A DNA stretch of 64,000 nt from an archaeon GW2011_AR10 (lineage in GTDB: Archaea > Iainarchaeota > Iainarchaeia > Iainarchaeales > GW2011-AR10). The notes beneath the pieces are model-generated. The model did not search any database. It worked only from the letters and a program-made list of their open reading frames with translations, and was not told where the DNA came from. Positions 12,832-29,504 of the stretch are shown here, piece after piece (the stretch's first letter is position 1; each line of letters opens with the position of its first letter). The stretch covers positions 622,782 through 686,781 of the forward strand of contig CP010424.1 in assembly GCA_000830275.1 (NCBI GenBank). The letters run 5' to 3'. The translations under genes were made by a program, and so were the position numbers.

Positions 12832-15800
12832 CTAATTTTTTTCTCTTCGAATGTAAACAAAGACCGCAATTAATGAAACAATGAAAAGTGCTAAAACAAC
12901 AGGGTTTTCTGGAAGCGATGGAAGGTTAAGCAGGCTCTTGTCGGTTTCCCCTACCTGCAGGTTAAGCACGTTGCCTGAAGCAGTTGAAGTTACCTCGTTG
13001 TTGGGGCCAACTCTTGCAGAAATGCCTTCGCGGAAAGCCTCAATCAAAGGCAGCAGCTGGGCGTTTTCAGCATACCACAAGCCTTTCTCCGGGTCATAAT
13101 AGAATGCCCCGTTCCTTCCCTGCGCTGAAGTAAGAACCTCTGGCTTCTGCCCGTCGAAGGAAACTGTTGGAACACCGTTTTCTGCAGCAAAGTCAAGCGT
13201 GTGCTTTTTGCCGTTCTCGTCAATGAATTCAAGGCCATTTGGAGTGGCTCTTGCAGTTCCAGCAAAGTCTTGAATCTCGCCTGTTTCCTTATCTATTACC
13301 CTCAAATGGTCCTTGCATGCTCCTGTTTCATCTCTTTCCGAGCTCAGCACATACCTTTTGGTCGGGGTTTCAAATACTTGGAAGGGGCCGAATTTTTTTA
13401 AGGAAGTATTGAATGCAGCAACCTTTGCTTGGTTCGCGGGACTATTGGGGTCGCCTTCCACTTGGAAGTCAAGAGCTGGTTCCTCGCACTGGTTTTCAGG
13501 GTTAGTGGAGGAAGTCAGGTCAGTGTCAAGGCCCCTAACATCGTTTTGTTCAAGTATGCCCTGCTCGTGGTGCCTTAACCAAATAAGGTAACAGCCGTCA
13601 GGCCTTGCAACAATCATTCCATTCTTGAACTGGATTGACTTAAGCGAGCCAACTTCCGGAATCCCATCATTAGAGCTTGAGAGCGCAACATCATTGTTTG
13701 CAAGTACATTTATTGTTGAAATGTTTCCTACAGCAATTTTTCTTGGAACTCCTTCAGCGACAATCCTGTCACCTAATGGCCTGATGTTGGGGTGCGTAGT
13801 GGTTATAACGGAATTCACCAACCCAAATGTTGAGGTTAAATTGTTTCCCCCAACCAAAGGCAAACCAGTCTGCTGCATCACTCCATCCTGCAGGCACGCC
13901 CGCGCTTCAGGATGTGTTATGAATGCCTCGCCCCTTGCATTCACCTGAATTGCAACATCAGCTGTTGGAGGCAAGCAGACAGTTGTCAATGTTCTTGGAA
14001 CTTTTTTAGCTGGAATGCTTAGCTCAAGGTCATCTCCGGCCAACCTTGCTGCATCCTCGTTCTCTACAATAGGCTTTCCATCAAAGAGTATCTTGCCGTT
14101 CTCGAAATCAAAGTCAAGGCCTTTCCCTGTTGTTTTGTCTTTCACTGTTTCCTTTCCCTCTGTTTTGTATTCGCCGGAACTCATCTCGCAGCCCGGTCCA
14201 CACCAGAAATAGAACAGCTTTCTTCCCTTCAGCTGGCCTGAGCTCTGACCTTGAATGCTCAAGCGTGCCTGAACAATGTTTTTTTCCTCGGAATCATTCA
14301 CAAACTTTTTGATGTCATTTCCGATTCCTTCAACCTGCTCTTTGACCAATGAGTCTTCACTGCTGCCGCTGAATGCACCGGTTATCTGCTCGTTGAGGTT
14401 GCCAATAAAATTGGAAACTTTTTCAGTTGAAAGCTCCACGTTTCCTTCATCGTCCCTCTCCTCCATTGGAGGAACAAGGTAATGCACGAAGTAGCCTTCC
14501 TCAACATCAACGCAGTCCTGAAGCTTTGGAGCGTAAAGGGTTTGAATTGCAACAGTGCTGAATGCTCCAGGCCAGAAAAAGGTTGCGTAAGCCAAGGTTT
14601 CAATGCCGCCAAGCACTCCACCAATGCCGCCTTCTTCAGGCAGGAATGGAGCAATTTTTTTTGCTGTGGCATAACCAGGCAAAGAGAACACTGCCTGCTT
14701 GCAGGTTTTTGGTTCCCCTTCGGGCTGCACGAATTCCTGGCCCCTGTCCCTTGCCTCGAATTCTTCCTGCTCGTTGCTCCAGGCATCATGCAAATCAATT
14801 CGTTCCCCTTCAATGTCCCCAGTGCTTCCCTTCAAGTCCATGTGGTGCGCGAAAGCAATCAGGGTTTGGCCTTTCTGCAAGGCATCCTCCGAGCGCGTGT
14901 CCTCAAGAATGTAGGCATCGAAAGGCCTGCCGACAACAAAGAAGGGGTTAAAGTCCTCCAAGTTGGCTGAATTCAATGTGACAAAACAGTCAACGCATTC
15001 ATTGGGGCCAGTCAAGTAAAACGCAAGGCTTTCGGTTTCATTCCTCAGTTCCCTTCCTGAGAGCTTGTTGTAAAAGTCCGCAACAGGATTGAATTTATCG
15101 CTTACTTCATCAAGCACAAGCTTCCATGGAAGCTTGTTTGCAACCTGCACAAACAAATCGCCTTGATCAGAACCCTCATTTGCAAAGAAGTCAATGTATG
15201 CTTCAAAGTAAAGCGGCTTGTCTTGGAGCAGGAAGTCAACCTCGCTCCAAGTGTCTGGCAGCTGGTAAAGTGATAGGTCCTCAAAGCCTGCTCCTTTTTT
15301 GCTCCACCAGTAGCCAAACGGGTAAACAGTCCACTTTGCACCGCCCTTGAACGAAAAATAGCTCCTTATTATTTCGTCTTCTTCTGCCGCAAGCTTGTCA
15401 AGCCAGCTCCAGTAGCGCCTTGAAACCCAGTTTCGTTCACGGAGAGTATTAAGCATTAAGTCAGTATTCACTTTTGACCTCAAAACGTTTGAACCAACCC
15501 TTGCGTTTGTCAATGCAGATGAAAGCTCTTCCGGAGTAAGCACTTTAGAAGGCCCCCAGTTTCCTTGAACAATTGTAGGGTTGCCGCCAATCCTGTTCTG
15601 AATTAACGGAATGCTTGCATCAGTGTAATGGATGTATTCGCCCATGTCGGTTTTTACCCAAGTATTGGCATAGCCTTTGGCCGCCCTTTCAAGGTTGCTG
15701 TAACTTAAGGCCCTAAACTCTGTTGTTGTGGCAGGGTCAAAGCCATAAAGTATGAGGTTTCCAAACTCGTCAGTTTCATAGGCGCTGCGGTACTTGTTTA

Positions 15801-17661
15801 TCTCAGCCGTAAAGTTCCTCCAGTTGCCAGAGTCAACGAATTTATCCAGAATTACGCGGAAGTTCCTGTGCTCTGAGAACAAGTCAAGAACATCGCCTGT
15901 GTTCACCTGCTTTACTCCCTTGTCATACAGGCCCATATTGACATGCCTGACAATCCATTCAGGAAGGTCGGCTCCCATTTGGTCATCCGCAGTTGTGAGG
16001 AACTTTGCAAAAGAACGGCCATAATCAACAAGGGCTTTTTTCCCTTCAGGGTGCGTTAATGGGTCAATTCCTTGGTCCCTTAGTTTGTTAAAAATATTTG
16101 AGTATACTTTCTCTGACTGTTCCACTTCGTGGAGGCCGCCCCTCCATATTGTCCTCAGGTCTTTCATGACGCGGACAAACTCTGCTTTCTTTTCAAGAGT
16201 GTCAATTGATTCAAGGAATCCGCCTTTCGCCTGCTGTTTTCCCCACCAGTCAAAGAACTCCTGGGTTTTAATAATTGGGTAGCCTGTGCCATCAGAGCTG
16301 CCGATTGTCATGCTCTGCCAGAAGTCACGCCAGCCGTACTTGTCAATTTTTGACTGCATCCTTGAAACCTTAAGGTCTCCAAGGAAAGAGCCAGGAGTTT
16401 CAAATGTTGCCCTGAACCTGTCAGCGTAATCTGTGAGTTTTCCTTTCAGGCCAGGCAAGAGGCCTCTTCTCGCATTCCAGCCGAACATTTTTTTTGCTGC
16501 ATAGCCAAGGCTCGGCCCGAAATTTGTTACAACCATTTCAGCGCTCAGCCACTGGTTAAAGTATTTGTCAAACATCGAGTAAGTTGTTATAATGCAGTCG
16601 TTGCTGATGCAGTTGGTGCCGAATTCTGCGTCAAACTCCTGTGCAAGAATCGAGTTGGGAAGCAACTCTGTTTCCAGTCGAGTTGCGGTTTTAATGTGGT
16701 TGGGAAAAGAACATATGCTGTTATCCCACACCATTCCAGCTGAAGTGCATGAAGCTTCATCTCTTGGGGTTTCAATGCACTCTCCTGTTACCTTGCTGTA
16801 AAAGTTTTTTGCTCCATCAGTGCACTGCTCCTGGGAAACTTCTTTCCAGAGCTCTTCCTGTCCTTCCTCAGTGAAAACCGCTGCTGCCAGAACTTCCTGC
16901 TCTTCTGATGTGAACTCTGGCTTTTCTGTTGAGTTTTCATCAGTGAACCAGCTCTTTATTTTGTCGTATCCGCTGCCGAAAGCTTCCTTGATTGGTTTAA
17001 AATCTGCAGCAATTCCTGAACCGGAATTTCTGTAAGTGAGGTTTTTTCCTGTAAGCCAGCAGTTCTGGTCGTAGTCCTTGCATCTCCCTGTACGCAGAGA
17101 ATCATCAAGCACAAGACCGAAAGCGAAAGGCCCCTTTATGTGCCTGTTCAAGTAATTGCTTATCTCCCAAGGATTAAATTTTTTGTTTGGCAAGTCGGCT
17201 TTTGCCGTGACGTTTTCGTCCTGCTGCGATTTCAGAATGATGTTGTTTTCTTTCAGCTCATCCCTGTCATCAATCTCGTTTTCTGTTTGCTGTGGAAGAG
17301 CATCACCGCTTATCTCTTCTCCAACAAAGCCGTCTTTCAGGAGGTTTAGTATGTTGTTGCTTTCAGTTGGTGTAAGAGAACGGGACTCGCAGACATAACC
17401 CCTGTTTGGGAAAGGCGAAGGTATCGGCACTATAGGAGAAGTTGCAGGAGGAACTGCAGGTATTATTGGAGGGGGTTGTGGCACAGCATCAGGCGTCGGA
17501 TCAAGCACTGTTGCATCTGCACCCTGAAATGCGGCAGAATTTTCGTTTTCAGTTGGATTTAAAGGTTCTGGTGCCTGTTCAGCGTAATAGTCCTGCGCGT
17601 TGGCAGGATAAGTGCTAAGCAGAATTATTGCAATCAAGAAAAGGCTTGGAAGTTTCCTCAC
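12832..17661 (-). CDS. Large secreted surface protein (1,609 aa) with N-terminal signal peptide and C-terminal transmembrane anchor
   Basis: N-terminus MRKLPSLFLIAIILLSTYPANAQ; C-terminus PENPVVLALFIVSLIAVFVYIRREKN. Plus-strand ORFs inside it are treated as frame shadows. Confidence 0.6.
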   Translation of the reverse strand: MRKLPSLFLIAIILLSTYPANAQDYYAEQAPEPLNPTENENSAAFQGADATVLDPTPDAVPQPPPIIPAVPPATSPIVPIPSPFPNRGYVCESRSLTPTESNNILNLLKDGFVGEEISGDALPQQTENEIDDRDELKENNIILKSQQDENVTAKADLPNKKFNPWEISNYLNRHIKGPFAFGLVLDDSLRTGRCKDYDQNCWLTGKNLTYRNSGSGIAADFKPIKEAFGSGYDKIKSWFTDENSTEKPEFTSEEQEVLAAAVFTEEGQEELWKEVSQEQCTDGAKNFYSKVTGECIETPRDEASCTSAGMVWDNSICSFPNHIKTATRLETELLPNSILAQEFDAEFGTNCISNDCIITTYSMFDKYFNQWLSAEMVVTNFGPSLGYAAKKMFGWNARRGLLPGLKGKLTDYADRFRATFETPGSFLGDLKVSRMQSKIDKYGWRDFWQSMTIGSSDGTGYPIIKTQEFFDWWGKQQAKGGFLESIDTLEKKAEFVRVMKDLRTIWRGGLHEVEQSEKVYSNIFNKLRDQGIDPLTHPEGKKALVDYGRSFAKFLTTADDQMGADLPEWIVRHVNMGLYDKGVKQVNTGDVLDLFSEHRNFRVILDKFVDSGNWRNFTAEINKYRSAYETDEFGNLILYGFDPATTTEFRALSYSNLERAAKGYANTWVKTDMGEYIHYTDASIPLIQNRIGGNPTIVQGNWGPSKVLTPEELSSALTNARVGSNVLRSKVNTDLMLNTLRERNWVSRRYWSWLDKLAAEEDEIIRSYFSFKGGAKWTVYPFGYWWSKKGAGFEDLSLYQLPDTWSEVDFLLQDKPLYFEAYIDFFANEGSDQGDLFVQVANKLPWKLVLDEVSDKFNPVADFYNKLSGRELRNETESLAFYLTGPNECVDCFVTLNSANLEDFNPFFVVGRPFDAYILEDTRSEDALQKGQTLIAFAHHMDLKGSTGDIEGERIDLHDAWSNEQEEFEARDRGQEFVQPEGEPKTCKQAVFSLPGYATAKKIAPFLPEEGGIGGVLGGIETLAYATFFWPGAFSTVAIQTLYAPKLQDCVDVEEGYFVHYLVPPMEERDDEGNVELSTEKVSNFIGNLNEQITGAFSGSSEDSLVKEQVEGIGNDIKKFVNDSEEKNIVQARLSIQGQSSGQLKGRKLFYFWCGPGCEMSSGEYKTEGKETVKDKTTGKGLDFDFENGKILFDGKPIVENEDAARLAGDDLELSIPAKKVPRTLTTVCLPPTADVAIQVNARGEAFITHPEARACLQDGVMQQTGLPLVGGNNLTSTFGLVNSVITTTHPNIRPLGDRIVAEGVPRKIAVGNISTINVLANNDVALSSSNDGIPEVGSLKSIQFKNGMIVARPDGCYLIWLRHHEQGILEQNDVRGLDTDLTSSTNPENQCEEPALDFQVEGDPNSPANQAKVAAFNTSLKKFGPFQVFETPTKRYVLSSERDETGACKDHLRVIDKETGEIQDFAGTARATPNGLEFIDENGKKHTLDFAAENGVPTVSFDGQKPEVLTSAQGRNGAFYYDPEKGLWYAENAQLLPLIEAFREGISARVGPNNEVTSTASGNVLNLQVGETDKSLLNLPSLPENPVVLALFIVSLIAVFVYIRREKN

Positions 17662-18385: not shown

Positions 18386-18418
18386 GGAAAAAATATCGAT
18401 AAACTAGTATAAAAAGCT

Positions 18419-19681
18419 ATGGAAGATGTCTTGATGGGGTTTATTGATTTGCTGCTTGATGGCTTCATTGCATTTTATCTTGTTCTTGGCTCAACTAGCC
18501 TTGGCTACATGTTCTTGCGTTTGGGGTGGCCGAGGATAAGGATTCTTGACAAGCAGTACCGCGCGGGGTGGAGCTTGATTCTTGGAGTGATTTTTACTTC
18601 CATTATTGTGGTGAGCTCGCTTATTTTCAGCATTACTCCTTTCCTTTCATTCAATTTCAAGGAGTTTTTGTTCCTTAACCTGAGCGTTACTTTTTTCATT
18701 GCAGTTGTAGTTCTTACAATTAAGAGAAAAATCCTTGTGCCGCGAAAGGCAACTGTGACTGTGCCAAGCGAACTGCTTAGAGCAAAAGTTGCGGCTGCAA
18801 AGGCAATGACGCATATTGAGTTAAGCGAAAGCCTTAAGGAAGGCGTAATCAGCGTTAAGCCATTGGAAGAGCAAAAGATTGCCGCGCTGAGAAAAAAACT
18901 TGAGGAAGGAAAAGAACTGGGTGCCATGAAAGCATCTGTTCAGGTTGAGTCAAGGCTTCCTCCGCTTGAAAAAATGTCAGAACAAAAGCATGAACAAAAA
19001 GAGGAAAAAATAGAAAGAGGGGAAGCAACGCACCCACTGGTGGCAAAACTTTTCGGAAAAAAACAGCTGGAAAAAACAGAAGAGAAGCTAATGGCCGAAA
19101 CTGGAAGGGCAAAGCCTTCCATTGAAGAGAAAATAGGGCAGGCAAAACAGAGGGAAGGAGAAGCAAAAGAGAAAAGGCTTGCTGAACTCCAAAACCTGCT
19201 AGAGCAGCAGAGAGATAAAGCAAGGGAAGAGGAGGGAAAGCCATCCAAGCCTTCTTGGAGTTTCACCAGCAGACCGAAGCAGGGCGGGTTTGAAGCAAGG
19301 AAAACAGAAGCAGGAAAGAAAGCATTAGGAGAACAGTTGAAAAAAACAGAAGCACTAAAGAAACCCGCAGCACAGAAACCGTTAAAGGAAACAATACAGT
19401 TCACTCCCCTGCCTCCAGAGGAAAGAAAGATAGAGGCTGTGAGAGCTCCTCCAAAACTGCAGCAAGAGCAGGTGCCTTCTGTGCCAAAAACTGCAATACC
19501 TGAAAAGCAGGGAAAAAAAGTTGAAGGGAAGCTGAGAGAACTGGACAAAACCGGGAAAAAACAAATTCAGCAGCGGCCTGAAGACAGCGGAGAAGATGTT
19601 CTGGACAGGTTCCTGAGAGAAAAAGGGGCCCAACTAAGAGTGCTAAAAAAGAAAAAAACAAAAGGCGAAGAAAGTGGGTGA
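18419..19681 (+). CDS. Membrane protein with long Lys/Glu-rich low-complexity tail
   Basis: N-terminal third has about three transmembrane helices; the rest is K/E/Q-rich and likely coiled or disordered. Confidence 0.45.
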   Translation: MEDVLMGFIDLLLDGFIAFYLVLGSTSLGYMFLRLGWPRIRILDKQYRAGWSLILGVIFTSIIVVSSLIFSITPFLSFNFKEFLFLNLSVTFFIAVVVLTIKRKILVPRKATVTVPSELLRAKVAAAKAMTHIELSESLKEGVISVKPLEEQKIAALRKKLEEGKELGAMKASVQVESRLPPLEKMSEQKHEQKEEKIERGEATHPLVAKLFGKKQLEKTEEKLMAETGRAKPSIEEKIGQAKQREGEAKEKRLAELQNLLEQQRDKAREEEGKPSKPSWSFTSRPKQGGFEARKTEAGKKALGEQLKKTEALKKPAAQKPLKETIQFTPLPPEERKIEAVRAPPKLQQEQVPSVPKTAIPEKQGKKVEGKLRELDKTGKKQIQQRPEDSGEDVLDRFLREKGAQLRVLKKKKTKGEESG

Positions 19682-20582
19682 GGGAAACCTGCCGAGAAGG
19701 CTTCGGCATAGAAAGCAGGCAGCTGATGCCAAGGCAGTTGAGAAGAAGTCCAGCGGCTTCTGGGATAATCTTTTTGGGAAAAAAAAAGCAGAAGAAAAAA
19801 AAAGCGAAGCAGTAGAACCAGAGCCTGACAGGCTGAGAAAAAAGCTGAAAGAAGAGAGCGATTACTTGGCTTCAGCAGAGGTCGGCAAATTCAAAGAAAA
19901 ACATAACAGGATTCCTACAAGAAAAGAACTGGATGAAATTTCTGAAACAATTTACAGCCAGCTTAAGAAAGAGACAAGAAAAGAAAGGGAACGCGAGGAA
20001 AAGCCAAGCAGGAGAAGGGAAAAGCACGGGAAAGAAAGAACACTGCTGGAGAAACGAAGGGCTGAGAGGAAAAGGCACAGGAGAAGAGAAGAAGTTGGCC
20101 GCCGAGAAAAGCTGGAAGAAGACGAAACAGAAGAAGAAAATGAGGAAGAAGCACTCCAGCTTGGAAGAGCTGAACCAGAAATCGGGAAAGGGGAAGAACC
20201 ACTTATTTCAGAGGAAGAGGAAAAAGAAATAAGCGTGAAGGACTTGCTGAAAGAAGAAGCAGGCGGAAAAGAAGAGGAAAGAGAAGAAACTACTGATGAA
20301 GATTATGACAAGCTTTCACTTGAAGAGCTGACGGAAACGGAAGAGTTTGGCAAAATAGGCAGCGAGCTTGAACGCAGCGGAACTGAATCAATCACAAAAG
20401 AGATTGAAACAGAGAAGAAGTGCCCTCACTGCGGCACAAAATCATCCGATATTGTTTTCTGCTCTGGCTGCGGAGCAGGATTCTGTTCCCACTGCGCGAA
20501 AAAGGTTGAAGTGCAGGAAGAGCACATAAAGTATGTCTGCCCTTCATGCGGCAGCGAGTTCAGGGTAAAAAGGCACAAGTGA
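19674..20582 (+). CDS. Highly charged protein with C-terminal double zinc ribbon
   Basis: C-terminus CPHCG-x10-CSGCG...CSHC-x14-CPSCG; K/E/R-rich remainder. GTG start overlaps the previous ORF by 8 bp in a different frame; two A9 tracts at 19779-19787 and 19795-19803. Confidence 0.4.
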   Translation: MGEGNLPRRLRHRKQAADAKAVEKKSSGFWDNLFGKKKAEEKKSEAVEPEPDRLRKKLKEESDYLASAEVGKFKEKHNRIPTRKELDEISETIYSQLKKETRKEREREEKPSRRREKHGKERTLLEKRRAERKRHRRREEVGRREKLEEDETEEENEEEALQLGRAEPEIGKGEEPLISEEEEKEISVKDLLKEEAGGKEEEREETTDEDYDKLSLEELTETEEFGKIGSELERSGTESITKEIETEKKCPHCGTKSSDIVFCSGCGAGFCSHCAKKVEVQEEHIKYVCPSCGSEFRVKRHK

Positions 20583-20588
20583 AAAATT

Positions 20589-21374
20589 TTACCTGCACGC
20601 TGAAGAATCAAAGTGCTCAATGCCTGCTTCAATGCAGCACCACTCAGAACTCTTAAAGTAGGGAACAGAACCTACTTCTGTCGCATCCCACAAAACCAAA
20701 TCTGCCTGCGTTTCAAATGGCCTGAAAGTTATCTCGTCCTCTGCAACCATTGTTATTTTGGCTGAAGCCTGCGCTGTGTCGCCAACCCGGATAATAAGGT
20801 CTTTCAGGCTGTTGTTGATTGTGCCAAAGTCAGCATTTTCCCCAATGCTGCACAGCAAATCAGTTCTTGGAGGGTCATCAGCAACAAAGTTTGGAAACCT
20901 CCCTGTTCCAATGTTCTCAAAGTTTGTTTTGTGGAAAAAAATGAAGATGAATTTCTGCCTCACATCCTCTTGGTCTCTTGGAACAGAAAGATAGAAAATG
21001 TAATCAAAGTTGTCTCCAAGAGGAGCCATTATTGAATTGATGTCCTGCGCTAAAATCAGCATTGTTTTCTCTGTGAGGTAGCGCTTGTCGGCATAATCTT
21101 CCTTCACATAAGCAAGCAGCTGGTCAATTTCAACTTCACTACTTAAGCCGTAAATTGAGCTGTCTGGGTTTCTTGGAGTGCTGCTGTAAAGAATTGTTTT
21201 AAGGGCATCCGTTGCAAAATCAGAATTGTAGTTCTGCACTATCTGCGCTGAAACAGTGTTGCCGTATCCATTGGAGAAAGAGAAAAGGAAAACGCTGATT
21301 GAGGTAACTATCAGGAGAAAGTAAAGAGCATCTGTTACTGCTGCTTGGCCTCTGTTTTCCTTTAAGGCATCCAT
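20589..21374 (-). CDS. Pilin-like protein with archaeal class III signal peptide
   Basis: N-terminus MDALKENRGQAAVTDALYFLLIVTSISVFLF: charged residues, Gly, then a hydrophobic helix. Confidence 0.5.
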   Translation of the reverse strand: MDALKENRGQAAVTDALYFLLIVTSISVFLFSFSNGYGNTVSAQIVQNYNSDFATDALKTILYSSTPRNPDSSIYGLSSEVEIDQLLAYVKEDYADKRYLTEKTMLILAQDINSIMAPLGDNFDYIFYLSVPRDQEDVRQKFIFIFFHKTNFENIGTGRFPNFVADDPPRTDLLCSIGENADFGTINNSLKDLIIRVGDTAQASAKITMVAEDEITFRPFETQADLVLWDATEVGSVPYFKSSEWCCIEAGIEHFDSSACR

Positions 21375-21901
21375 GTAACCACCACCAAGTGCATTGGCTT
21401 AATAACCCTGTTGTCTTCAACTGCAATCGGGTAAATCCTTGCAACAATTTCTTTGTCGGCAAAAAAACGGTAAGCAAAGCTAGGGGAAGAAGAAATGTCG
21501 CTGTTAATTGCAGGGTCAATGTTGTGGCATGAGAACTCGTTGCCTGCTTCATCCAAGAAAAAGCCCACGTTGTATAGCCTTGCATCCTGGGCATTGTATT
21601 GCAGGCTGTATTGGTCTGTGGCAGTATAATAGTTTGTTATTCCCGCGCGGAATTTAAGGTTTGGAATGCTGAGTGTACTGCACAGCGCTTTGAAGTTCTC
21701 GTAGCCACTTATATAGCTTGTGCCTTTAAGGACTTTGGCAATTTTTATCACTTTGATGTCAGAATCGAACTTGGAGTTTTTATTGTCAAAGACACCGAAA
21801 GCGAAAGTAAAGGTTGAAAAAAACATTATCAGCGCGAAGAGCAGTGGAATCAGGGAAGGCAGGTCATCTCCAATCGGCCCCAAAAAACCTTTATTCAGCA
21901 A
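21362..21901 (-). CDS. Pilus-associated protein with N-terminal transmembrane helix
   Basis: N-terminus MLNKGFLGPIGDDLPSLIPLLFALIMFF; overlaps the downstream gene by 13 bp, so it belongs to the operon. Confidence 0.4.
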   Translation of the reverse strand: MLNKGFLGPIGDDLPSLIPLLFALIMFFSTFTFAFGVFDNKNSKFDSDIKVIKIAKVLKGTSYISGYENFKALCSTLSIPNLKFRAGITNYYTATDQYSLQYNAQDARLYNVGFFLDEAGNEFSCHNIDPAINSDISSSPSFAYRFFADKEIVARIYPIAVEDNRVIKPMHLVVVTWMP

Positions 21902-22587
21902 GTGAAACCAACCCCTGGGTAAACGCTTTCACCCACGCTTGATTTTATGGCATTGCATGTCGGGCCAACGCTGCATGGAAAAATGTAGAGGGAGCTTTGC
22001 CCCCTCTTGATTTCCTTAACTAACTGAATTGAATCCATTGGAACTCTGGCCTGAGGGTCAATGTAAACAGATTCCCCTGTGTCAGTGGCCAGTTCGCGGA
22101 GTGTTCCAATTCCCCCGTACTCGTCACCCAAATAGTCTTGGCTGAAAAGGGTTACTTCTGCTTTTGTTTCAAAGGATTTTGCTGCAATTGCTTTTGGAAT
22201 GTAGGAAGGGTCATTAATTGATTTCACGAGGTCGCGCCTCGGGAAAACCGAGAAAATAACTTTCGAGATTGTTTCAGGGCCTGAGGGAAGCTCTTTCTCA
22301 AACTGCGTTACACTTATTTTCATCACATAGTAGAATTCTTGGCCGCTTACATCAAGGGAGCGCGGGAATGTATGTGAATCAGAAAAACAGTAAGCGGGGG
22401 AAGAAGCAACACTGCTTGCTTTGGTGAGAACCCTGTCAAGCAACAGCTGTGCTTCCTTCACCTTGACTATGTCGATTAAGCCGAAAGTGAAGAAGGCAAC
22501 GATTGCAAAAATTGATACCACAAGTATCAAGAGATTCATTTTGCTTAAAATGAAGCCAAGCATTGTCAAACCCTCTTGTAAACGCAA
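21895..22587 (-). CDS. Pilus-associated protein with N-terminal transmembrane helix
   Basis: N-terminus ...MNLLILVVSIFAIVAFFTFGL; overlaps neighbours on both sides. Confidence 0.4.
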   Translation of the reverse strand: MRLQEGLTMLGFILSKMNLLILVVSIFAIVAFFTFGLIDIVKVKEAQLLLDRVLTKASSVASSPAYCFSDSHTFPRSLDVSGQEFYYVMKISVTQFEKELPSGPETISKVIFSVFPRRDLVKSINDPSYIPKAIAAKSFETKAEVTLFSQDYLGDEYGGIGTLRELATDTGESVYIDPQARVPMDSIQLVKEIKRGQSSLYIFPCSVGPTCNAIKSSVGESVYPGVGFTC

Positions 22588-23111
22588 ATCCTTGGCTGCG
22601 GGGAGAACAAGTGGAACTGCTTGATTAAAGTGTACTGGCCGGGCTCAATTGCTTCGTCTTTCTTCCATTCCTTTACTTTAAATTCTGTTGGCTGGTCGTC
22701 AAAGTCGTGGCAGACTGTTGCGGAAGGAAAATCCGTTGCAGAAGAAATGTTAAGACACTTTATTGAACTGAAGTCAGGCGAGGAAAACAAAAGCAGAGTG
22801 CATTCATAGCGCAACCCGCCACAATGAAAAGAGCAAGTGGCCCGGTCATCCCTGCTGACAATCCTCAGCGAGCTATCATTCTGGTTAAAGCAGGACGGCA
22901 TATCGTATGCAACAGTTTTTTTGCCTTCGCCTTTTGCAACTGTTTCAAGCGCAGTCTTCAATTCCTCCATGTTCTGGTCAATTTTGCCTTCACACTGCGC
23001 TCTCAGCAAAGTGCTCATTGCATTGAGCCCTACAACTATCACAAAAGTCATTGTTATTACTGCAATCAGCAGCTCGAAAGGGGCTGCTTCCTGGCCTTTC
23101 TGGCTGAGCAT
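22566..23111 (-). CDS. Pilin-like protein with archaeal class III signal peptide
   Basis: MLSQKGQEAAPFELLIAVITMTFVIVVGL; start chosen at the internal M because K-G-Q sits right before the hydrophobic helix. The track ORF extends to 23162. Confidence 0.55.
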   Translation of the reverse strand: MLSQKGQEAAPFELLIAVITMTFVIVVGLNAMSTLLRAQCEGKIDQNMEELKTALETVAKGEGKKTVAYDMPSCFNQNDSSLRIVSRDDRATCSFHCGGLRYECTLLLFSSPDFSSIKCLNISSATDFPSATVCHDFDDQPTEFKVKEWKKDEAIEPGQYTLIKQFHLFSPQPRICVYKRV

Positions 23112-23220
23112 GGTAACAAGAATACTGTAAAGAGATATATAAAGATTCTCAGAATCAATCAACAGGTATTGAGGGCAAGCATTATGAGCTGTTTGTGTTA
23201 CTGTAAAAAAACGCAGTGTT

Positions 23221-23388
23221 TTACTTATTGAAATACTTGGCCTGCTGCCTGCTCCAAACCTTATTCGGAGTTTTTTTCAGCCATTCAGCGTACATGTCGA
23301 TAAATTCCATGCGCTGCTGCCTGTTTCTCCTCATTTCCTCTTTAAGCTCTTTCAAATCTTTTTTTGTAAGCTTTAGCCCTTTTCCCAT
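23221..23388 (-). CDS. Small charged protein (55 aa) inside the pilus operon, not in the ORF track
   Basis: Hand translation: MGKGLKLTKKDLKELKEEMRRNRQQRMEFIDMYAEWLKKTPNKVWSRQQAKYFNK; ATG ends at 23388, TAA at 23221-23223. Confidence 0.3.
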   Translation of the reverse strand: MGKGLKLTKKDLKELKEEMRRNRQQRMEFIDMYAEWLKKTPNKVWSRQQAKYFNK

Positions 23389-23547
23389 AAAATTTTCTCC
23401 GCCTGCTTTTCAACCCTGAAATTTTGAAAGCTCTCTTTCAAAAACAATCCTGTTTCCCTTGAATTCCAGTTCCATAAATTAATCTGCCAACAAACTTAAT
23501 TTAACCATTCTCAAGCAAAAAAAGTATCCAAGTATTTGAAGTAGTAG

Positions 23548-23706
23548 TCAGTTTATGAGCGGCTGCCTTTTAACTATTTCCTGGCTCTTCTTGAACATTG
23601 GCTTAATCAAAGCAATCAGCAAAAGCGCTGCAATAATAAAAATAATGATTAGGTAAATTGAGCTCCATTCACCCTGCGCCCTTTCACCTAATTCAGGAAA
23701 TCCCAT
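23548..23706 (-). CDS. Small hydrophobic pilin-like protein (52 aa), not in the ORF track
   Basis: Hand translation: MGFPELGERAQGEWSSIYLIIIFIIAALLLIALIKPMFKKSQEIVKRQPLIN; short charged N-terminus, Gly, then one helix, like short Flp-type pilins. Confidence 0.4.
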   Translation of the reverse strand: MGFPELGERAQGEWSSIYLIIIFIIAALLLIALIKPMFKKSQEIVKRQPLIN

Positions 23707-23752
23707 ATAGAAAAAGAATGGAAAAAGAAGTATTTAATGATTGGTGTTAGGT

Positions 23753-24301
23753 TTAACTTGCCGGAATAATGCTTACAAGGCAAATCCTTTCAGTGTTTGA
23801 GGGGTCAAATATTGCTGTTCCACCGCCACAAAAGCTGTTGTAGCCGGAAAACACTGTGTCAAGCCTTGCTTCTAGGACGGTTTCCTCAACCCTGTTCGCG
23901 TTATCGCAGAGCACGTATAGCTTCTGCTGCTGGTCAGAGTTGCCGTTGTAGCGAATCCAAGAGCCTTGAGCAACTTCCTCATAGTTAGGGTTGCTTCCTG
24001 AAACAGTGTCAGAAATTAAAACGCAAAGCTGGTGCTCTCCAAGCGAACCAGTTTTTTCTGCAATTGTCCTTGACCTCAGGCTTGTGCCGTTCTTGAATGT
24101 TACTAATCCTGTTCTTTCAGGCGTGCCCAAATTGTTGATGAGTGTCTTAATTTTTGAGGACGCTTCCTCTGTGGGGTCGCCTTGGCTTGGGGGCGCAATC
24201 TGCGTTAAAATCTGCAGCAGAATTGTGAGAATGAATACTGCAACAATTGCTGCAATCAACAGCTTGAAAACGCTGAAAGCCTGCCCTCTCTCATTCAACA
24301 T
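23753..24301 (-). CDS. Pilin-like protein with archaeal class III signal peptide
   Basis: MLNERGQAFSVFKLLIAAIVAVFILTILLQIL. Confidence 0.6.
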   Translation of the reverse strand: MLNERGQAFSVFKLLIAAIVAVFILTILLQILTQIAPPSQGDPTEEASSKIKTLINNLGTPERTGLVTFKNGTSLRSRTIAEKTGSLGEHQLCVLISDTVSGSNPNYEEVAQGSWIRYNGNSDQQQKLYVLCDNANRVEETVLEARLDTVFSGYNSFCGGGTAIFDPSNTERICLVSIIPAS

Positions 24302-24366
24302 AGCAATCGTAAATAGAAACTCTTAACCCATATTTAAAGGTTTTGCTTTAATTCGGCTATAAACAG

Positions 24367-24813
24367 CTAAGGCGTAATTGGTTTAGAGAAAGAGAACTTG
24401 CAGCAGATTTCGCAGGTTGAATCGCAAAAGGAGGCAGGGTCAAGGTTTGTTGTGCACTGCGCGTAAAAGTTTGTTTCAATGCGGTAATTTACCAGTATTC
24501 TTTGCGAGTCAACAGTGAAAGAGGAACTGCTTGGAGCAAGAATTTCAACGCATTGCCCCTCTAATCCTGTTCTTCTTGCAAGAAAATCTTTAGTATAAAC
24601 TGTGCCTTTGTCGAAGAGGAGGTTTTCAACAACAAGAATGTCATTGTTTGGCTGCTGCACCGCGTTCTCTAATCCTTCAAGAAAACGCTCTTTGCTCACG
24701 TTTATTTTGAACTCCTCAAAGGAACGGATTGCACCGAGAATTATTAATAAAATCAGCAGCGCAACTATTGCGCCAATCATCATCTTGAACGGCTCAAACT
24801 GCCCTTTCTCCAT
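24367..24813 (-). CDS. Pilin-like protein with archaeal class III signal peptide
   Basis: MEKGQFEPFKMMIGAIVALLILLIILGAI; start chosen at the internal M (track start 24831). Confidence 0.6.
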   Translation of the reverse strand: MEKGQFEPFKMMIGAIVALLILLIILGAIRSFEEFKINVSKERFLEGLENAVQQPNNDILVVENLLFDKGTVYTKDFLARRTGLEGQCVEILAPSSSSFTVDSQRILVNYRIETNFYAQCTTNLDPASFCDSTCEICCKFSFSKPITP

Positions 24814-24852
24814 ACTAAAAACATCTCCCAATTTTTTTTAGTGTAAAAAACA

Positions 24853-27210
24853 TTAAGCCAAAAATCCGCCGACGAGAATGTTGGAAATAATTATGCTTAA
24901 AACGAAAATTATAACTGAAATTGGGAAAAAGCGCGCAATGTTTATTCTCACCAGCAAATCGTTGTCCTCCTCTATTTTGGTGGTGAAGTAAGTCATTATG
25001 AGGAGAAGCTCCACAACGTAGATTGCAACGATGATTACGAACTGCGTTGGAGTAGCCATTCCAGCAACTGCTGCCGGGTCAATGAAGCTTCCAACGTTTA
25101 TGCCAGAAAACGTGTTTGGAATGCCTGCTCCTCCTGGAACATCAAGGTTGCTCAGATCAAGTTCCGTTGCAATATTGGAAGAAGCGATGGAGGAAAGGGT
25201 TATTATTACGATTTTCTGCAGGCTTGTTGTAATGCCCAAAACCATCGGCGCAATGAATAGGCTCATTGTCTTCATCATTCCTGTTACATCAGAAACCAAA
25301 ATCTTCAAATTGTTTGCAACCTTTTCCGCGTTGTCGAGCTGGATGCTTAACGCAATCATTGTCCTGGCAGCAACGTTCACCCCCAATTGCACTGAATCAA
25401 CAAGCAGCCTCACTGAACCGCTAATCAACGAGCTTGGAATGTTTTTCAATGAACCATAGTTTGGGTCAAAGAATGCCTGCTCTAATGGCATTGCAAGCAA
25501 GGCAATGTTGTCAAGCGTTTTCGAGAAAATCCTTTTCGATATTTTGAACTGTGGCAAAAAATCCATTGTGTGCTTTAATGCTTCCTCCACCGGCTTGTTT
25601 TCACCCATGCGGGAAGCAAGAATGTAGATTGAGTCCTTGAACTCTGACTCCATTTCAACAATTTCAAGCTGGGCTTTCCGCTTGTAAATGTTGTTGTAGT
25701 AGAGGTAAACAAACACTGAAAGTGAAACGGTTATGAGCAGGCCGAAAATGAAATTGTAGGGAGTAATATCGTTGGCCGGCTTCGTGAAAAATGCCTGTTC
25801 CTCGCTTTTCACGCGTTTCTCTGCTTCCTCAACAGGAAAACCCTGCGCAATCAGCTCATTGTAAAGCACTCCTGTGGGAATGTCAAAGTATTTCAATTGG
25901 TAGCCTGCTTTTGAAAGAACTTCAGTCCTTTGCTTGTCTAATGCAAGCAGCTGCGGCGTGCCTTCCTCAAGGCCCAAAGCATCGTAAAGAATTTTTGGCG
26001 GAACTCCTTGCTGTGAAACAAAAAAGGAAATTGAGCTTCCTGCAATCAACACAACAACAACCACGAAGAAAATGCTCACAAAGCCGTTGCCTAACCTCAT
26101 TGTGCCCTTCGGCGGCAAACCCGGAAAGTTGTCCTTTATTTCAGGCGCAACATACGTTGGTGGGCGCTTGCTTATAACGGAGAAAGCAAACCAAAGCGTA
26201 ACCAAAGGAATTATTATGTTGTAAATGGCAAACAAAACAATTGGGTTTGCAAGCGGTGCGCCGCTGAAAGAGCTCCCTACAGGAAGAATGATTATCAGAA
26301 TCAATGGAAGCAGCACCCCAACATAGAAGAGAATCATTGTTGGCTGGTTGAGGTCGCGAGCATACTGCTCCATTTTGTTTTTTATTGACTCAAGTATTTC
26401 ATCCATTGTTTGGTCAAGCAAAGCAAAACGCTTTGCTTCAGTTGTTTCAATCACTGAAGCGCGGATTCGCATCAACGCTTTCTTGAATTCATCGCTGAAT
26501 GCACCCCAGCGGTAAGCCAGTGCATCGCTTGCTTCTGCAACAGACGAGTAAACTCCCAACTGGACATCCCACAAAAGTTTTTTGAAGTCTTCAGCAATTT
26601 TGCCCCTGCCGTGCTCTGCTGCAAACTCAATGCTTTTCTCCAGGTTCGGGCTTAACTTCATTGACATAACCATGTAGCCGAGGATTTCAGGAACATAAGT
26701 CAAAGCACGCACCTGCTCTGCTCTTGCCTCCTCCAAGGGATAGTTTTGAACATAATATGTTGCAAAAACCACCATGCCAAGCAATGGGAGGAGAATGTAG
26801 ATTGGCGTAAGAAAGGTTGCCCCGCCAACGAATAGGTTTACAACCACTATTGCAGGGGACAGGAAAATAATTCCTGCAATTACTATTGCAGCAAGAAAGC
26901 TCACAATCAGCACGAACTTGTACGCTGCACCAAGCTCTTCCCCATTTAGCTCCCAACCCAGAAACTCCACTGCCTTCTTGTTCTGCTCTGAAAGCGCTTC
27001 ACCTTTTCCTAGTGAAGGAGCCATTGCGTGAATGCGCTTGCAGAACCTAACAAAAGGGTGCTGTTTTCTCCTTACAAGCGTTCTTTCCTCATTCTTGAAC
27101 TCGTCCTTGACCACGGCTATTTCCCTGTAAAGCTCTCCAATAGAGCTTGGCCCATCAAACAGCTTCTCTTCTTCTTCCTGCTCTCTTTCTTCCCTGTCTT
27201 TTCTCGCCAT
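24853..27210 (-). CDS. Type IV pilus platform membrane protein (FlaJ/TadC-like, two-domain, 785 aa)
   Basis: Polytopic; helical bundles alternate with two soluble regions, as in two-domain T2SSF platforms; sits directly downstream of the ATPase. Confidence 0.55.
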   Translation of the reverse strand: MARKDREEREQEEEEKLFDGPSSIGELYREIAVVKDEFKNEERTLVRRKQHPFVRFCKRIHAMAPSLGKGEALSEQNKKAVEFLGWELNGEELGAAYKFVLIVSFLAAIVIAGIIFLSPAIVVVNLFVGGATFLTPIYILLPLLGMVVFATYYVQNYPLEEARAEQVRALTYVPEILGYMVMSMKLSPNLEKSIEFAAEHGRGKIAEDFKKLLWDVQLGVYSSVAEASDALAYRWGAFSDEFKKALMRIRASVIETTEAKRFALLDQTMDEILESIKNKMEQYARDLNQPTMILFYVGVLLPLILIIILPVGSSFSGAPLANPIVLFAIYNIIIPLVTLWFAFSVISKRPPTYVAPEIKDNFPGLPPKGTMRLGNGFVSIFFVVVVVLIAGSSISFFVSQQGVPPKILYDALGLEEGTPQLLALDKQRTEVLSKAGYQLKYFDIPTGVLYNELIAQGFPVEEAEKRVKSEEQAFFTKPANDITPYNFIFGLLITVSLSVFVYLYYNNIYKRKAQLEIVEMESEFKDSIYILASRMGENKPVEEALKHTMDFLPQFKISKRIFSKTLDNIALLAMPLEQAFFDPNYGSLKNIPSSLISGSVRLLVDSVQLGVNVAARTMIALSIQLDNAEKVANNLKILVSDVTGMMKTMSLFIAPMVLGITTSLQKIVIITLSSIASSNIATELDLSNLDVPGGAGIPNTFSGINVGSFIDPAAVAGMATPTQFVIIVAIYVVELLLIMTYFTTKIEEDNDLLVRINIARFFPISVIIFVLSIIISNILVGGFLA

Positions 27211-27224
27211 AAAATGGTTTCACT

Positions 27225-29504
27225 TCAAGACTTTGTTTTGGCAATTATTCCCTTAATTAAGTGGTTTTTTACCCAGTTCTTCCACTCGCCCAGAACCTCT
27301 TCGTAGTCAACGGAACCGTGTTCTTCAAGCTGGTCCTCCTTCAATAGCATGAGCTTGTTGTTTGCAAGAACCGCGTTTTCTGCTTCAAGCAGAGAAGGAA
27401 TTGAATTCTTGTTCTTCATTTCCACCAAAAACTCTTTTGCCGAGCCATTCATTCTTATGCTCCTCCAGATTTCTTCAAGGTTGAGGCCGCTCATCTTGCT
27501 TATCTTTGAGAACATCTCGCTTTCCTTAAGGTTGTCTTCAAGCAGTTCAAGCTCGTCTTTTTTTGCGTCATAACTCATTAGGTCCAGCAAACCGCCCTCT
27601 CTTTCAGGATCCTCAATCCAGTGCTTTTTCACCTCTGTTATCTGGACAATTCTCCTGTTCCTCTGCAGTGACCCGGAAAACCTTATCGGCCTTGCAACCA
27701 CGACAACATCAGTTGCCTTAAACGAAGTGTTTGGAACATCCAAGTCATTCACTACCCTATCCCACACAGAGTAAGCGCTTTCACCGTGGATTGTTCCCAT
27801 CACAATGTTTCCCGCAGCACCAATTCTCATTGCCTCGTACAGAACCCTTGCTTCCTTGCTCCTCACTTCACCTATGATTAGGGCAGAATCTCCCAAACGA
27901 AGCGCTGTCCTCAAAGCTTCCTCTGGCGCAACCTCAGAGGAAGTGCCGCCAGCAGCAATAGGTGAACGCGTTTTAAGCCTCTGGATGTTGAAGCCTATGT
28001 TCTTCATGTAAGGAACTGGAAGTTCCAAGGTGTCTTCCTGCACAATTATTCTCGTGCTCTGGATAATTTCAAGGATTAGTGCCTGCATCAAAGAAGTTTT
28101 TCCGCTGCCCCTTGAACCAGTAACCAGCATTGTTGCCTGTGCGTCAACGAAAAAAGAAAGCAGGCCTGCTGAAAGAGGAGTTAAAAATTTCACGTCAACA
28201 AACTGGGGCAGCGTCCAAGGAGTAACCTTATGCAGCCTGAAAGCAAACGCGATTCCGCTCGGCGCAAGCGGCGGGCCAATGACTGCAACCCTTGTCTCCA
28301 TGTCAGGCAAATCAAAGTCCAGGACTGGATGAGCTTCATCAAATGGCCTGCCTGACATTGCACGCATTTTTGATACAAGCGAACTTGCCTCTCCTTCAGT
28401 GTAAAGAATGTTGGTTTCGCACTGGCCAAAGTCAGAGTGAATAACGTAAAGCGGCTTCTGCCCGATGGGAGAATCAATGAAAATGTCTGTGAGGTTCCTG
28501 TCAGAGAGCAGCAGTTCAAGGATTCCGTAGCCGACAGTGTACCTTGCAACAATCTGGCTTAACTCAATTATTTCATCGTTGCCAAGAGAAATATTGTTCT
28601 CTTTCGCGATGTCCTTGATTGTTGACTGGTAAACGCGCTCAAAGTACTTCCTGCTTTTCGCAAGCTCGCTTAAAGAGGTTTTTCCAGGCCTGTACGATGC
28701 AACGATTTCCCTTGTCTTGCTCAAAATGAAGTACTTGTCCGGGGGCAGGGAATACTCTGGGGGATTGACAATGTAAAGCTTCTGCGGCTTGTTCGGGTGC
28801 TTGAATATCTGCACTGTTGTATCCTTCACTTGGTATTCGTCCAGAAGCTCCAGCTTTTCCTCTTCTTCAAACAGCAGCCTTGAACCGATAAAGGAGGGTT
28901 TTACCTGCGCTTCAAAGAACGGCTTGTACATTTCTTTTGTGTCAGGAACTGTTTTCAGCTTCAAAAGAATCTGTTTGGCTTTCTGGACAAGCATTGTGCT
29001 GTCAAGGTTCTTCTTTATGTAAAGCAGGGTGCGAAGGTAAACATCAGAGTAATGCTCTTTGTCCTCAGAGCTAAAGCGCTCCCTTTCCTTGCTGATGGCG
29101 CGGAGCAGTTCAAGGTAAGAATAAATCGGGTCAAACAACAGGGTATCGTGAGTGATTTTAACAATAGTGTTGTGCCTTTCACCGAAGTCTTTTTCGCCCT
29201 CAATTTTTGCATCCCCTAAAAACTTGTAGCTCCACACGCTTTCAATCTCTAATTTTTGCGCAACCCTCGAAATTTCCTCCAGAAGCTTTTTCTGCTCCTC
29301 GCTGTAAACCCTTTCGTACACTTCAGCCAAAACAATGTCGTCAACTTCCACTTCTTGAAGCAGGCTGAAGACATGGTACCTGCATGCAGGGTCATCAGCG
29401 ATTGAGGAACTATAAACGCAGTCGCGACAGTCAAAAATCAGGTGCCTCTTGTTGCCTTCCTCTTTAACCGCCCAAGGGCCTACTTCAAAACCGCCGATTT
29501 TCAA
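27225..29504 (-). CDS. Type IV pilus assembly ATPase (FlaI/ArlI/PilB-like) with extended N-terminal domain
   Basis: Walker A TGSRGSGKTSLMQAL, Asp box IIVQEDTLEL, Walker B/His box ALIIGEVRSKEA...GTIHGESA; 759 aa, about 200 aa longer than typical FlaI. Confidence 0.8.
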   Translation of the reverse strand: MKIGGFEVGPWAVKEEGNKRHLIFDCRDCVYSSSIADDPACRYHVFSLLQEVEVDDIVLAEVYERVYSEEQKKLLEEISRVAQKLEIESVWSYKFLGDAKIEGEKDFGERHNTIVKITHDTLLFDPIYSYLELLRAISKERERFSSEDKEHYSDVYLRTLLYIKKNLDSTMLVQKAKQILLKLKTVPDTKEMYKPFFEAQVKPSFIGSRLLFEEEEKLELLDEYQVKDTTVQIFKHPNKPQKLYIVNPPEYSLPPDKYFILSKTREIVASYRPGKTSLSELAKSRKYFERVYQSTIKDIAKENNISLGNDEIIELSQIVARYTVGYGILELLLSDRNLTDIFIDSPIGQKPLYVIHSDFGQCETNILYTEGEASSLVSKMRAMSGRPFDEAHPVLDFDLPDMETRVAVIGPPLAPSGIAFAFRLHKVTPWTLPQFVDVKFLTPLSAGLLSFFVDAQATMLVTGSRGSGKTSLMQALILEIIQSTRIIVQEDTLELPVPYMKNIGFNIQRLKTRSPIAAGGTSSEVAPEEALRTALRLGDSALIIGEVRSKEARVLYEAMRIGAAGNIVMGTIHGESAYSVWDRVVNDLDVPNTSFKATDVVVVARPIRFSGSLQRNRRIVQITEVKKHWIEDPEREGGLLDLMSYDAKKDELELLEDNLKESEMFSKISKMSGLNLEEIWRSIRMNGSAKEFLVEMKNKNSIPSLLEAENAVLANNKLMLLKEDQLEEHGSVDYEEVLGEWKNWVKNHLIKGIIAKTKS

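Follow-up and report, generated by a model that had tools for sequence, protein, structure and literature searches.

The archaeon GW2011_AR10 (AR10) is a groundwater DPANN archaeon of the Diapherotrites/Iainarchaeota, and 64,000 nucleotides (nt) of its genome (contig CP010424.1, positions 622,782 to 686,781; the window) were analyzed here. Two adjacent open reading frames (ORFs) of this window, ORF1 and ORF2, overlap by 8 nt beside a group of poly-A tracts (Table 1). They are very probably two genuine, separately translated genes of an operon, and together they would correspond, in split form, to a zinc-ribbon protein with a membrane anchor that a sister clade has as a single chain. Judged by homology, ORF1 and ORF2 are the N- and C-terminal halves of what is one protein elsewhere, and the shared position of the break indicates that the split is inherited from the common ancestor of the split clade. 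This is an ordinary overlapping gene pair from an old gene split, and the poly-A runs are incidental to lysine-rich coding. In GenBank, the pair is already annotated as two genes, AJF60212.1 (ORF1) and AJF60213.1 (ORF2), and the name "Caldesmon" given to AJF60212.1 is a misnaming, an artefact of low complexity.

A sequence-only reading of this stretch had described the two ORFs, their 8-bp overlap, the A-rich junction and both A9 runs, and all of them are present in the sequence at the coordinates that it gave. It had also noted that a single-base slip would fuse the ORFs into a protein of roughly 720 amino acids (aa), and this holds as well: the frame of ORF2 is +1 relative to ORF1, and a 1-nt deletion of an A in the A6 (19645-19650), A7 (19652-19658) or A4 (19660-19663) run of the junction gives a fusion ORF of exactly 720 aa, with the predicted peptides VLKKKKQKAKKVGEGNLPR and KKKKQKAKKVGEGNLPR across the fused junction. 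The A6-G-A7-C-A4 tract is the sole stretch where a 1-nt deletion would join ORF1 and ORF2. The ORF2 frame opens at 19647, after the TAA at 19644-19646, and both frames are open across the 27 nt before the GTG. The two A9 runs, which are the only homopolymers of at least 9 nt within the window, behave in another way, as a slip within them would lead to a stop of ORF2 after about 10-15 codons in either alternative frame.

The arrangement as two genes is found throughout the clade of AR10. Two distant homologues of ORF2 (34-39% identity) lie in the syntenic loci L007 and L008 (L008 and L011 share a contig), where each is the downstream member of a gene pair, and a scan of the GTDB species representatives revealed 18 further loci, including that of Candidatus Iainarchaeum andersonii. 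Besides AR10, 16 junctions were readable, from 15 GTDB species representatives and L007 (labels given as L007, L009-L020 and L022-L025). The ORF1 membrane domain was matched by phmmer in 16 other loci (E 1e-16 to 1e-33), and at 16 of the 16 other junctions the stop-to-stop frame that holds the membrane domain is not the one that holds the zinc-ribbon protein. The distances from the ORF1 stop to the ORF2 start at the other junctions are -14, -8 (four times), -4 (six times), +1 (three times), +2, +3 and +6 nt, so that 11 of them overlap. All three relative frames are found, with L011 and L022 in the same frame and a stop codon between the genes, and the GTGGGTGA of AR10 is equivalent in geometry to the ATGnnTGA of L014, L015, L016 and L023. 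A poly-A tract occurs at none of these 16 orthologous junctions.

Every ORF2 of the other loci has a proper start codon (ATG, GTG or TTG) positioned 4-8 residues before a PRRLRRF motif. The N-terminus M-x3-5-P-R-R-L/M-R/K-R-F is conserved from the start codon on, and the frame upstream is closed or unconserved. On the other side of the junction, the C-terminus of ORF1 carries a conserved ..LLKELLKE(T)xGE motif, which reads ..LRVLKKKKTKGEESG in AR10. Because the break is flanked by this conserved C-terminal motif and by the conserved ORF2 N-terminus, its position is homologous across the clade. Gene order is conserved too, as g1609(-) g180(-) ORF1(+) ORF2(+) g261 g179 g222 g181(-), that is, a giant secreted protein (-), a 180-aa membrane protein (-), ORF1 (+), ORF2 (+) and four pilin-like genes (-). 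The A9 runs are lineage-specific and sit in an insertion of ORF2 (residues ~15-56) that has no counterpart in most orthologues.

The fused relatives came from an exhaustive profile search with a hidden Markov model (HMM) against 1.84 billion cluster representatives; word-indexed protein searches with ORF2 alone and with a 19-sequence profile returned 3 and 7 hits, swamped by low-complexity K/E sequence. The exhaustive search found 385 homologues of ORF2, most of them 230-330 aa long, and N-terminal transmembrane (TM) segments were present in 8 of the 152 homologues examined. In P0054 (576 aa), P0076 (770 aa) and P0090 (746 aa), an ORF1-type membrane domain, a K/E tail, PRRLRRF, the helical hairpin and the zinc ribbon stand in one chain. 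Their genes occupy the orthologous locus of Diapherotrites genomes, between a 177-aa gene and the pilin-like genes, with T2SSF and T2SSE beyond. P0090 lies in L028 and L029, which are two separate assemblies, P0076 in L030 and P0054 in L031; the neighbours of L028, L030 and L031 match those of the split loci. Since the frame is open across the fused junction in three genomes, with a GC content of 38%, 47% and 55%, and since P0090 occurs in two assemblies, the fused form is a true in-frame gene and no artefact of gene calling or assembly. The outcome that the sequence-only reading had named as refuting its idea, orthologues with two separate proteins and no variation in tract length, is what the clade of AR10 shows, as far as consensus assemblies can tell; in three genomes of the sister clade the gene is fused. 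Its hunch of one protein is borne out by the single in-frame gene of these three relatives, but none of the three causes that it had proposed for the break is supported.

P0076 has its own Lys-rich and A-rich linker (SEKKKKPSKKKKKHT, L030:9420-9476) directly before PRRLRR, at the position of the KKKKTK tract of AR10. Because the two match in position, a basic low-complexity linker appears to be present at this point in both the split and the fused forms.

A neighbour-joining tree was built from four flanking pilin-like genes (781 columns) and rooted at the midpoint. The three fused loci and L021 fall in one clade, and all split loci, including AR10, fall in the other. Fusion is also found in a more distant group of proteins, P0158, P0159, P0163 and P0164 (489-582 aa). 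In hhalign, the ORF1 profile matches the TM domain of this group with P 8.7e-5 and a probability of 60%, and downstream the locus of the group is laid out in the same way, with weak homologues at the corresponding positions. At the distant locus L033, two of the four marker genes of the tree were detectable, weakly, and the locus was not used as a root. As the distant group is fused as well, parsimony favours a fission, and the single chain is probably ancestral, with one fission at the base of the AR10/Iainarchaeum clade.

Two further arrangements of the ORF2 module were seen. In L021 (4001-4756), which groups with the fused clade, the ORF2 homologue has no partner: the region before it is AT-rich and non-coding, and an ORF1-like membrane gene, g180 and the giant protein are all missing upstream. 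The ORF2 module (PRRMRRFYR, helical hairpin and zinc ribbon) is fused to a different N-terminal part in P0131 (647 aa; MBN1940861.1) and P0125 (581 aa); in P0131, this part consists of a secreted domain and one TM anchor. Because P0131-type fusions differ from the ORF1-type, the zinc-ribbon module seems to be membrane-tethered in more than one way.

ORF1 would contribute a three-helix membrane anchor and a charged cytoplasmic tail: hydropathy predicts three TM helices, followed by KRK and a long K/E-rich tail, and the tail is probably cytoplasmic because the KRK comes after the three hydrophobic segments. ORF2 would contribute the PRRLRRF motif, the helical hairpin, an acidic linker and a zinc ribbon with four Cys pairs. 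The split point lies between the conserved amphipathic helix (..LLKELLKE..) and PRRLRRF, and it is the same in all split genomes. An AlphaFold 2 (AF2) model of ORF2 has long N-terminal helices (residues ~8-162), confident only at the hairpin (~50-117), followed by an acidic linker that is disordered and by a compact zinc module; its predicted local distance difference test (pLDDT) score is 85-96 over residues 50-110, with a mean of 69. Across 19 sequences, no Cys of the four pairs varies. ORF1 has zero matches in Pfam and NCBIfam, and ORF2 has only sub-threshold matches to generic zinc ribbons in the same two databases, such as 26.2 bits against Zn_ribbon_3 (PF13248), whose cut-off is 27. A Foldseek search of the ORF2 model against the PDB gave no match at E <= 0.001, and generic zinc fingers (Rim2, rabphilin and Rpp21) appeared at E > 0.09.

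Table 1. Coordinates of the gene pair, its parts and the neighbouring features in the window.
Feature	Position	Strand	Description
ORF1	18434..19681	+	415 aa from ATG 18434, the start in most gene callers; 420 aa (18419-19681) if ATG 18419
ORF2	19674..20582	+	302 aa, GTG start; GenBank AJF60213.1
Start/stop overlap, 8 nt	19674..19681	+	GTGGGTGA; ORF2 GTG 19674-19676, ORF1 TGA 19679-19681; putative termination-reinitiation site
A6-G-A7-C-A4 tract	19645..19663	+	encodes KKKKTK near the ORF1 C-terminus
Two A9 runs	19779-19787 and 19795-19803 (span 19779..19803)	+	encode KKK and (E)KK(S)
ORF1 conserved membrane domain	18434..18790	+	motifs GSxSLGYxFLRxGWPxIR, YKxGWS, KRK...V.V.VPK; also N-terminal in P0054, P0076 and P0090
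ORF1 K/E-rich tail	18791..19678	+	length very variable between species, whole protein 157 to ~710 aa
ORF2 motif PRRLRH	19692..19709	+	family consensus PRRLRRF; 6 residues past the start codon; from alignments
ORF2 helical hairpin	19821..20024	+	residues ~50-117; motif F-x-E-x3-R-x-P-x3-E-x-D/E-x-I; most confident part of the model
ORF2 C-terminal zinc-ribbon module	20412..20573	+	four Cys pairs CPxC...CxxC...CxHC...CPxC; AF2 pLDDT 82-90
1609-aa protein	12832-17661	-	signal-like N-terminal segment, C-terminal TM anchor; no Pfam hit
55-aa gene	23221-23388	-	precomputed Pfam DUF8150 hit; positionally conserved (55-59 aa) in AR10, L007, L028, L030 and L031
T2SSF-like platform, 785 aa	24853-27210	-	below family cut-off
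FlaI/TadA-like ATPase, 759 aa	27225-29504	-	below family cut-off

From the geometry of the junction and its conservation, ORF2 is most likely translated by termination-reinitiation. A ribosome that ends ORF1 at the TGA would restart 5 nt upstream at the GTG, and this termination-reinitiation would provide the two partners in roughly equimolar amounts. The pair has the traits of coupled genes, being co-directional with an 8-nt overlap, and a short distance (-14 to +6 nt) is kept at the 16 other junctions. As far as two studies of such pairs describe it, the coupling needs short overlaps, which are enriched among the subunits of heteromeric complexes (PMC6728339; PMC10666635). The ORF1 and ORF2 partners may act together because their orthologues are fused, and this fits the reported enrichment of short overlaps.

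Several points weigh against a coupled pair that arose by fission. Upstream of the GTG, AR10 has only a weak Shine-Dalgarno (SD)-like element (AAGG), and GTG is a weaker start than ATG. The putative coupling of ORF1 and ORF2 is deduced from the junction geometry and its conservation, and a physical interaction of their products from the fused orthologues only. The direction of the event depends on a midpoint-rooted neighbour-joining tree of four fast-evolving genes and on the 60%-probability profile match to the TM domain of the outgroup. Finally, consensus assemblies could miss low-frequency tract-length variants in reads or transcripts. An SD-driven start of ORF2 in AR10 was considered and rejected: apart from the weak AAGG upstream, the sequence GGTGAGG lies downstream of the GTG, and a clear SD is also absent from most genes in the window.

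The poly-A tracts were compared with what the coding content of the two genes would produce. ORF1 and ORF2 contain 13.6% Lys and 12-22% Glu, with a mild preference for AAA and GAA. When synonymous codons were resampled with the window-wide usage, at least two A9 runs arose in 7% of the trials and at least seven runs of seven or more A in 0.3%. When the own codons of ORF1 and ORF2 were permuted, the respective values were 20% (P = 0.20) and 5.4% (P = 0.054), and by this permutation of both genes there is no homopolymer excess beyond composition. The A runs are there because of the Lys/Glu content and the mild AAA/GAA preference of ORF1 and ORF2, with nothing beyond composition. In these low-complexity segments, Lys/Glu coding rich in AAA and GAA yields the A-rich tracts as a by-product.

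In programmed recoding, transcriptional slippage or a +1/-2 ribosomal shift in A6-G-A7 would produce a minor fused 720-aa isoform next to the two separate proteins. Sites of programmed -1 frameshifting or slippage are known, such as the A_AAA_AAG of Escherichia coli dnaX and the A-runs of insertion sequence (IS) elements. The fused architecture is functional in relatives, and the ORF2 frame is open over exactly the A-rich 27 nt that precede the GTG. However, the in-phase heptamer A_AAA_AAG (19645-19651) shifts to -1, and a -1 frameshift at this site was rejected as a candidate: the frame that it enters is not that of ORF2 (+1) and comes to a dead end at 465 aa. The RNA downstream has no significant structure; its minimum free energy is -29.7 kcal/mol, and shuffled sequences average -26.8 (z = -0.9). 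Moreover, the slippery tract is missing from all 16 other junctions, two of which have an in-frame stop, and ORF2 has its own conserved start, upstream of which the conservation does not extend. We therefore regard programmed recoding as very unlikely. A shade less likely still, occasional transcriptional loss of one A in A6-G-A7 would place a small amount of the 720-aa isoform beside the two subunits, and nothing in the sequence data speaks for it; if this is true, the isoform would be the equivalent of the single-chain form encoded in the sister clade.

Another explanation is a recent homopolymer frameshift that broke a gene of ~720 aa in AR10 and left ORF2 as an untranslated remnant or pseudogene, as the sequence-only reading had considered. 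A one-base deletion in A6, A7 or A4 does restore the 720-aa ORF, and fused orthologues of 576-770 aa exist. Against this, the split stands at the homologous position in 16 other loci, each of which has the two-gene layout and its own ORF2 start codon, and AR10 is nested within the split clade. ORF2 is intact in AR10, with four invariant zinc-binding Cys pairs and a conserved N-terminus from the GTG on, and it is invariant across population variants. The idea of a recent break is thus highly improbable.

Slipped-strand phase variation, in which the length of a tract would toggle between separate and fused proteins (junction) or between on and off (A9 runs), is just as improbable. The two longest homopolymers of the window do lie in ORF2, and cell-surface filament loci are the kind of loci that are phase-varied in bacteria. 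Runs of A7-A9 are, however, short for an efficient contingency locus, and given the composition the number of runs is no more than chance would yield. Orthologues, whose junction geometry varies, do not share the tracts, and the A9 runs lie within a dispensable insertion. The length variants that this proposal of the sequence-only reading calls for were not seen: among 7 assemblies and 13 full-length ORF1 variants, all of them consensus sequences, tract-length polymorphism was absent. A scan of JGI metagenome contigs for other tract lengths (+/-3 nt over both tract regions) returned one contig, which has the reference lengths and is a thin sample.

The stability of the junction and the length of its tracts were judged by comparing consensus assemblies. 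The exact ORF2 protein is present on 24 contigs from various samples and assemblers, of which six were fetched (L001-L006). The contigs were picked by ORF2 identity, and the choice is therefore unbiased for the junction tract, which precedes the start of ORF2. The 211-nt junction is identical base for base in 7 of the 7 assemblies read (L001-L006 and L027), which differ in samples and pipelines, and the 2.2-kb gene pair has at most one single-nucleotide polymorphism among the six fetched contigs. The assemblies that agree are the closed AR10 genome, the Third Party Annotation (TPA) re-assembly GCA_013332025.1, ENA re-assemblies of several Rifle runs, a Logan assembly and the JGI contig. In the 90% cluster of ORF1, the 13 full-length variants show scattered substitutions, and 13 of 13 end ...LRVLKKKKTKGEESG at the same stop (...KKKKTKGEESG); truncated members of this cluster break at contig ends in every case and never at the tracts. 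The 90% cluster of ORF2 has two full-length entries only, with the same sequence save for the rendering of the GTG start. Homopolymers are classic sites of indels, but an A7 tract is not error-prone on Illumina, and with the same sequence in the closed genome and in the TPA, ENA, Logan and JGI assemblies, a junction identical in 7 assemblies and a stop shared by 13 ORF1 variants, the sequencing or assembly indel that the sequence-only reading had listed has next to no chance of being the cause.

The same population sample has a further feature. About 11 amino-acid polymorphisms are present among the 13 ORF1 variants, all of them in the charged tail; neither the TM domain nor any part of ORF2 varies.

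The gene pair is adjacent to a type IV filament locus, and synteny suggests that ORF1 and ORF2 are a cytoplasmic accessory pair of this locus. A complete type IV filament-like cluster lies on the minus strand at 20589-29504 and consists of eight small genes, a platform and an ATPase. Several of the eight small genes have class-III-signal-like N-termini (e.g. MLNERGQAFSVFKLLIAAIVAVFIL), and the order of the first four is kept in all related loci. On the other side, the 1609-aa protein, presumably a surface protein that belongs to the filament locus, is strongly conserved beside the gene pair: partial matches in related genomes reach E 1e-235. A divergent AT-rich intergenic region of 33-48 nt (18386-18433) separates the 180-aa gene (-) from ORF1 (+), and TATA-like elements in it were judged by eye (TATAAAAA at 18408-18415); the transcripts of the 180-aa gene and of ORF1 may both be leaderless. 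No Rfam RNA families were found in the window.

For annotation, ORF1 and ORF2 are to be kept as two real genes, and they call for no merging, pseudogene flag or frameshift correction. The split and fused forms together tie an uncharacterised membrane protein and an uncharacterised zinc-ribbon protein into one functional unit. This unit stands next to type IV filament genes, an association conserved across the 21 related loci examined, and is a candidate accessory component for the surface filaments of uncultivated DPANN archaea.

Among known systems, the dnaX- and IS-type slippage sites resemble AR10 in that an in-phase A_AAA_AAG and A7-A9 runs are present. AR10 differs from them in the wrong frame, the lack of conservation and of a stimulatory structure, and a downstream ORF that has its own start. 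The homopolymer contingency loci of bacterial surface structures likewise have homopolymer tracts in genes of a surface-filament locus, whereas the tracts of AR10 are short, lineage-specific and compositionally expected, with no length polymorphism found. The pairs translated by termination-reinitiation are, like that of AR10, co-directional, overlap or have a very short spacing, and keep this distance across species, as far as the studies of such pairs describe them (Huber et al., 2019, PMC6728339; Huber et al., 2023, PMC10666635). In the same descriptions, ATGA (-4) or TGATG (-1) is predominant, whereas AR10 has an 8-nt overlap and a GTG. The fission/fusion "Rosetta stone" pairs are the other parallel. 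Here the family is uncharacterised and the direction, probably a fission, is suggested by parsimony; as in these pairs, the adjacent genes align end to end with one protein at the orthologous locus in the same domain order, and the break point lies within a low-complexity linker.

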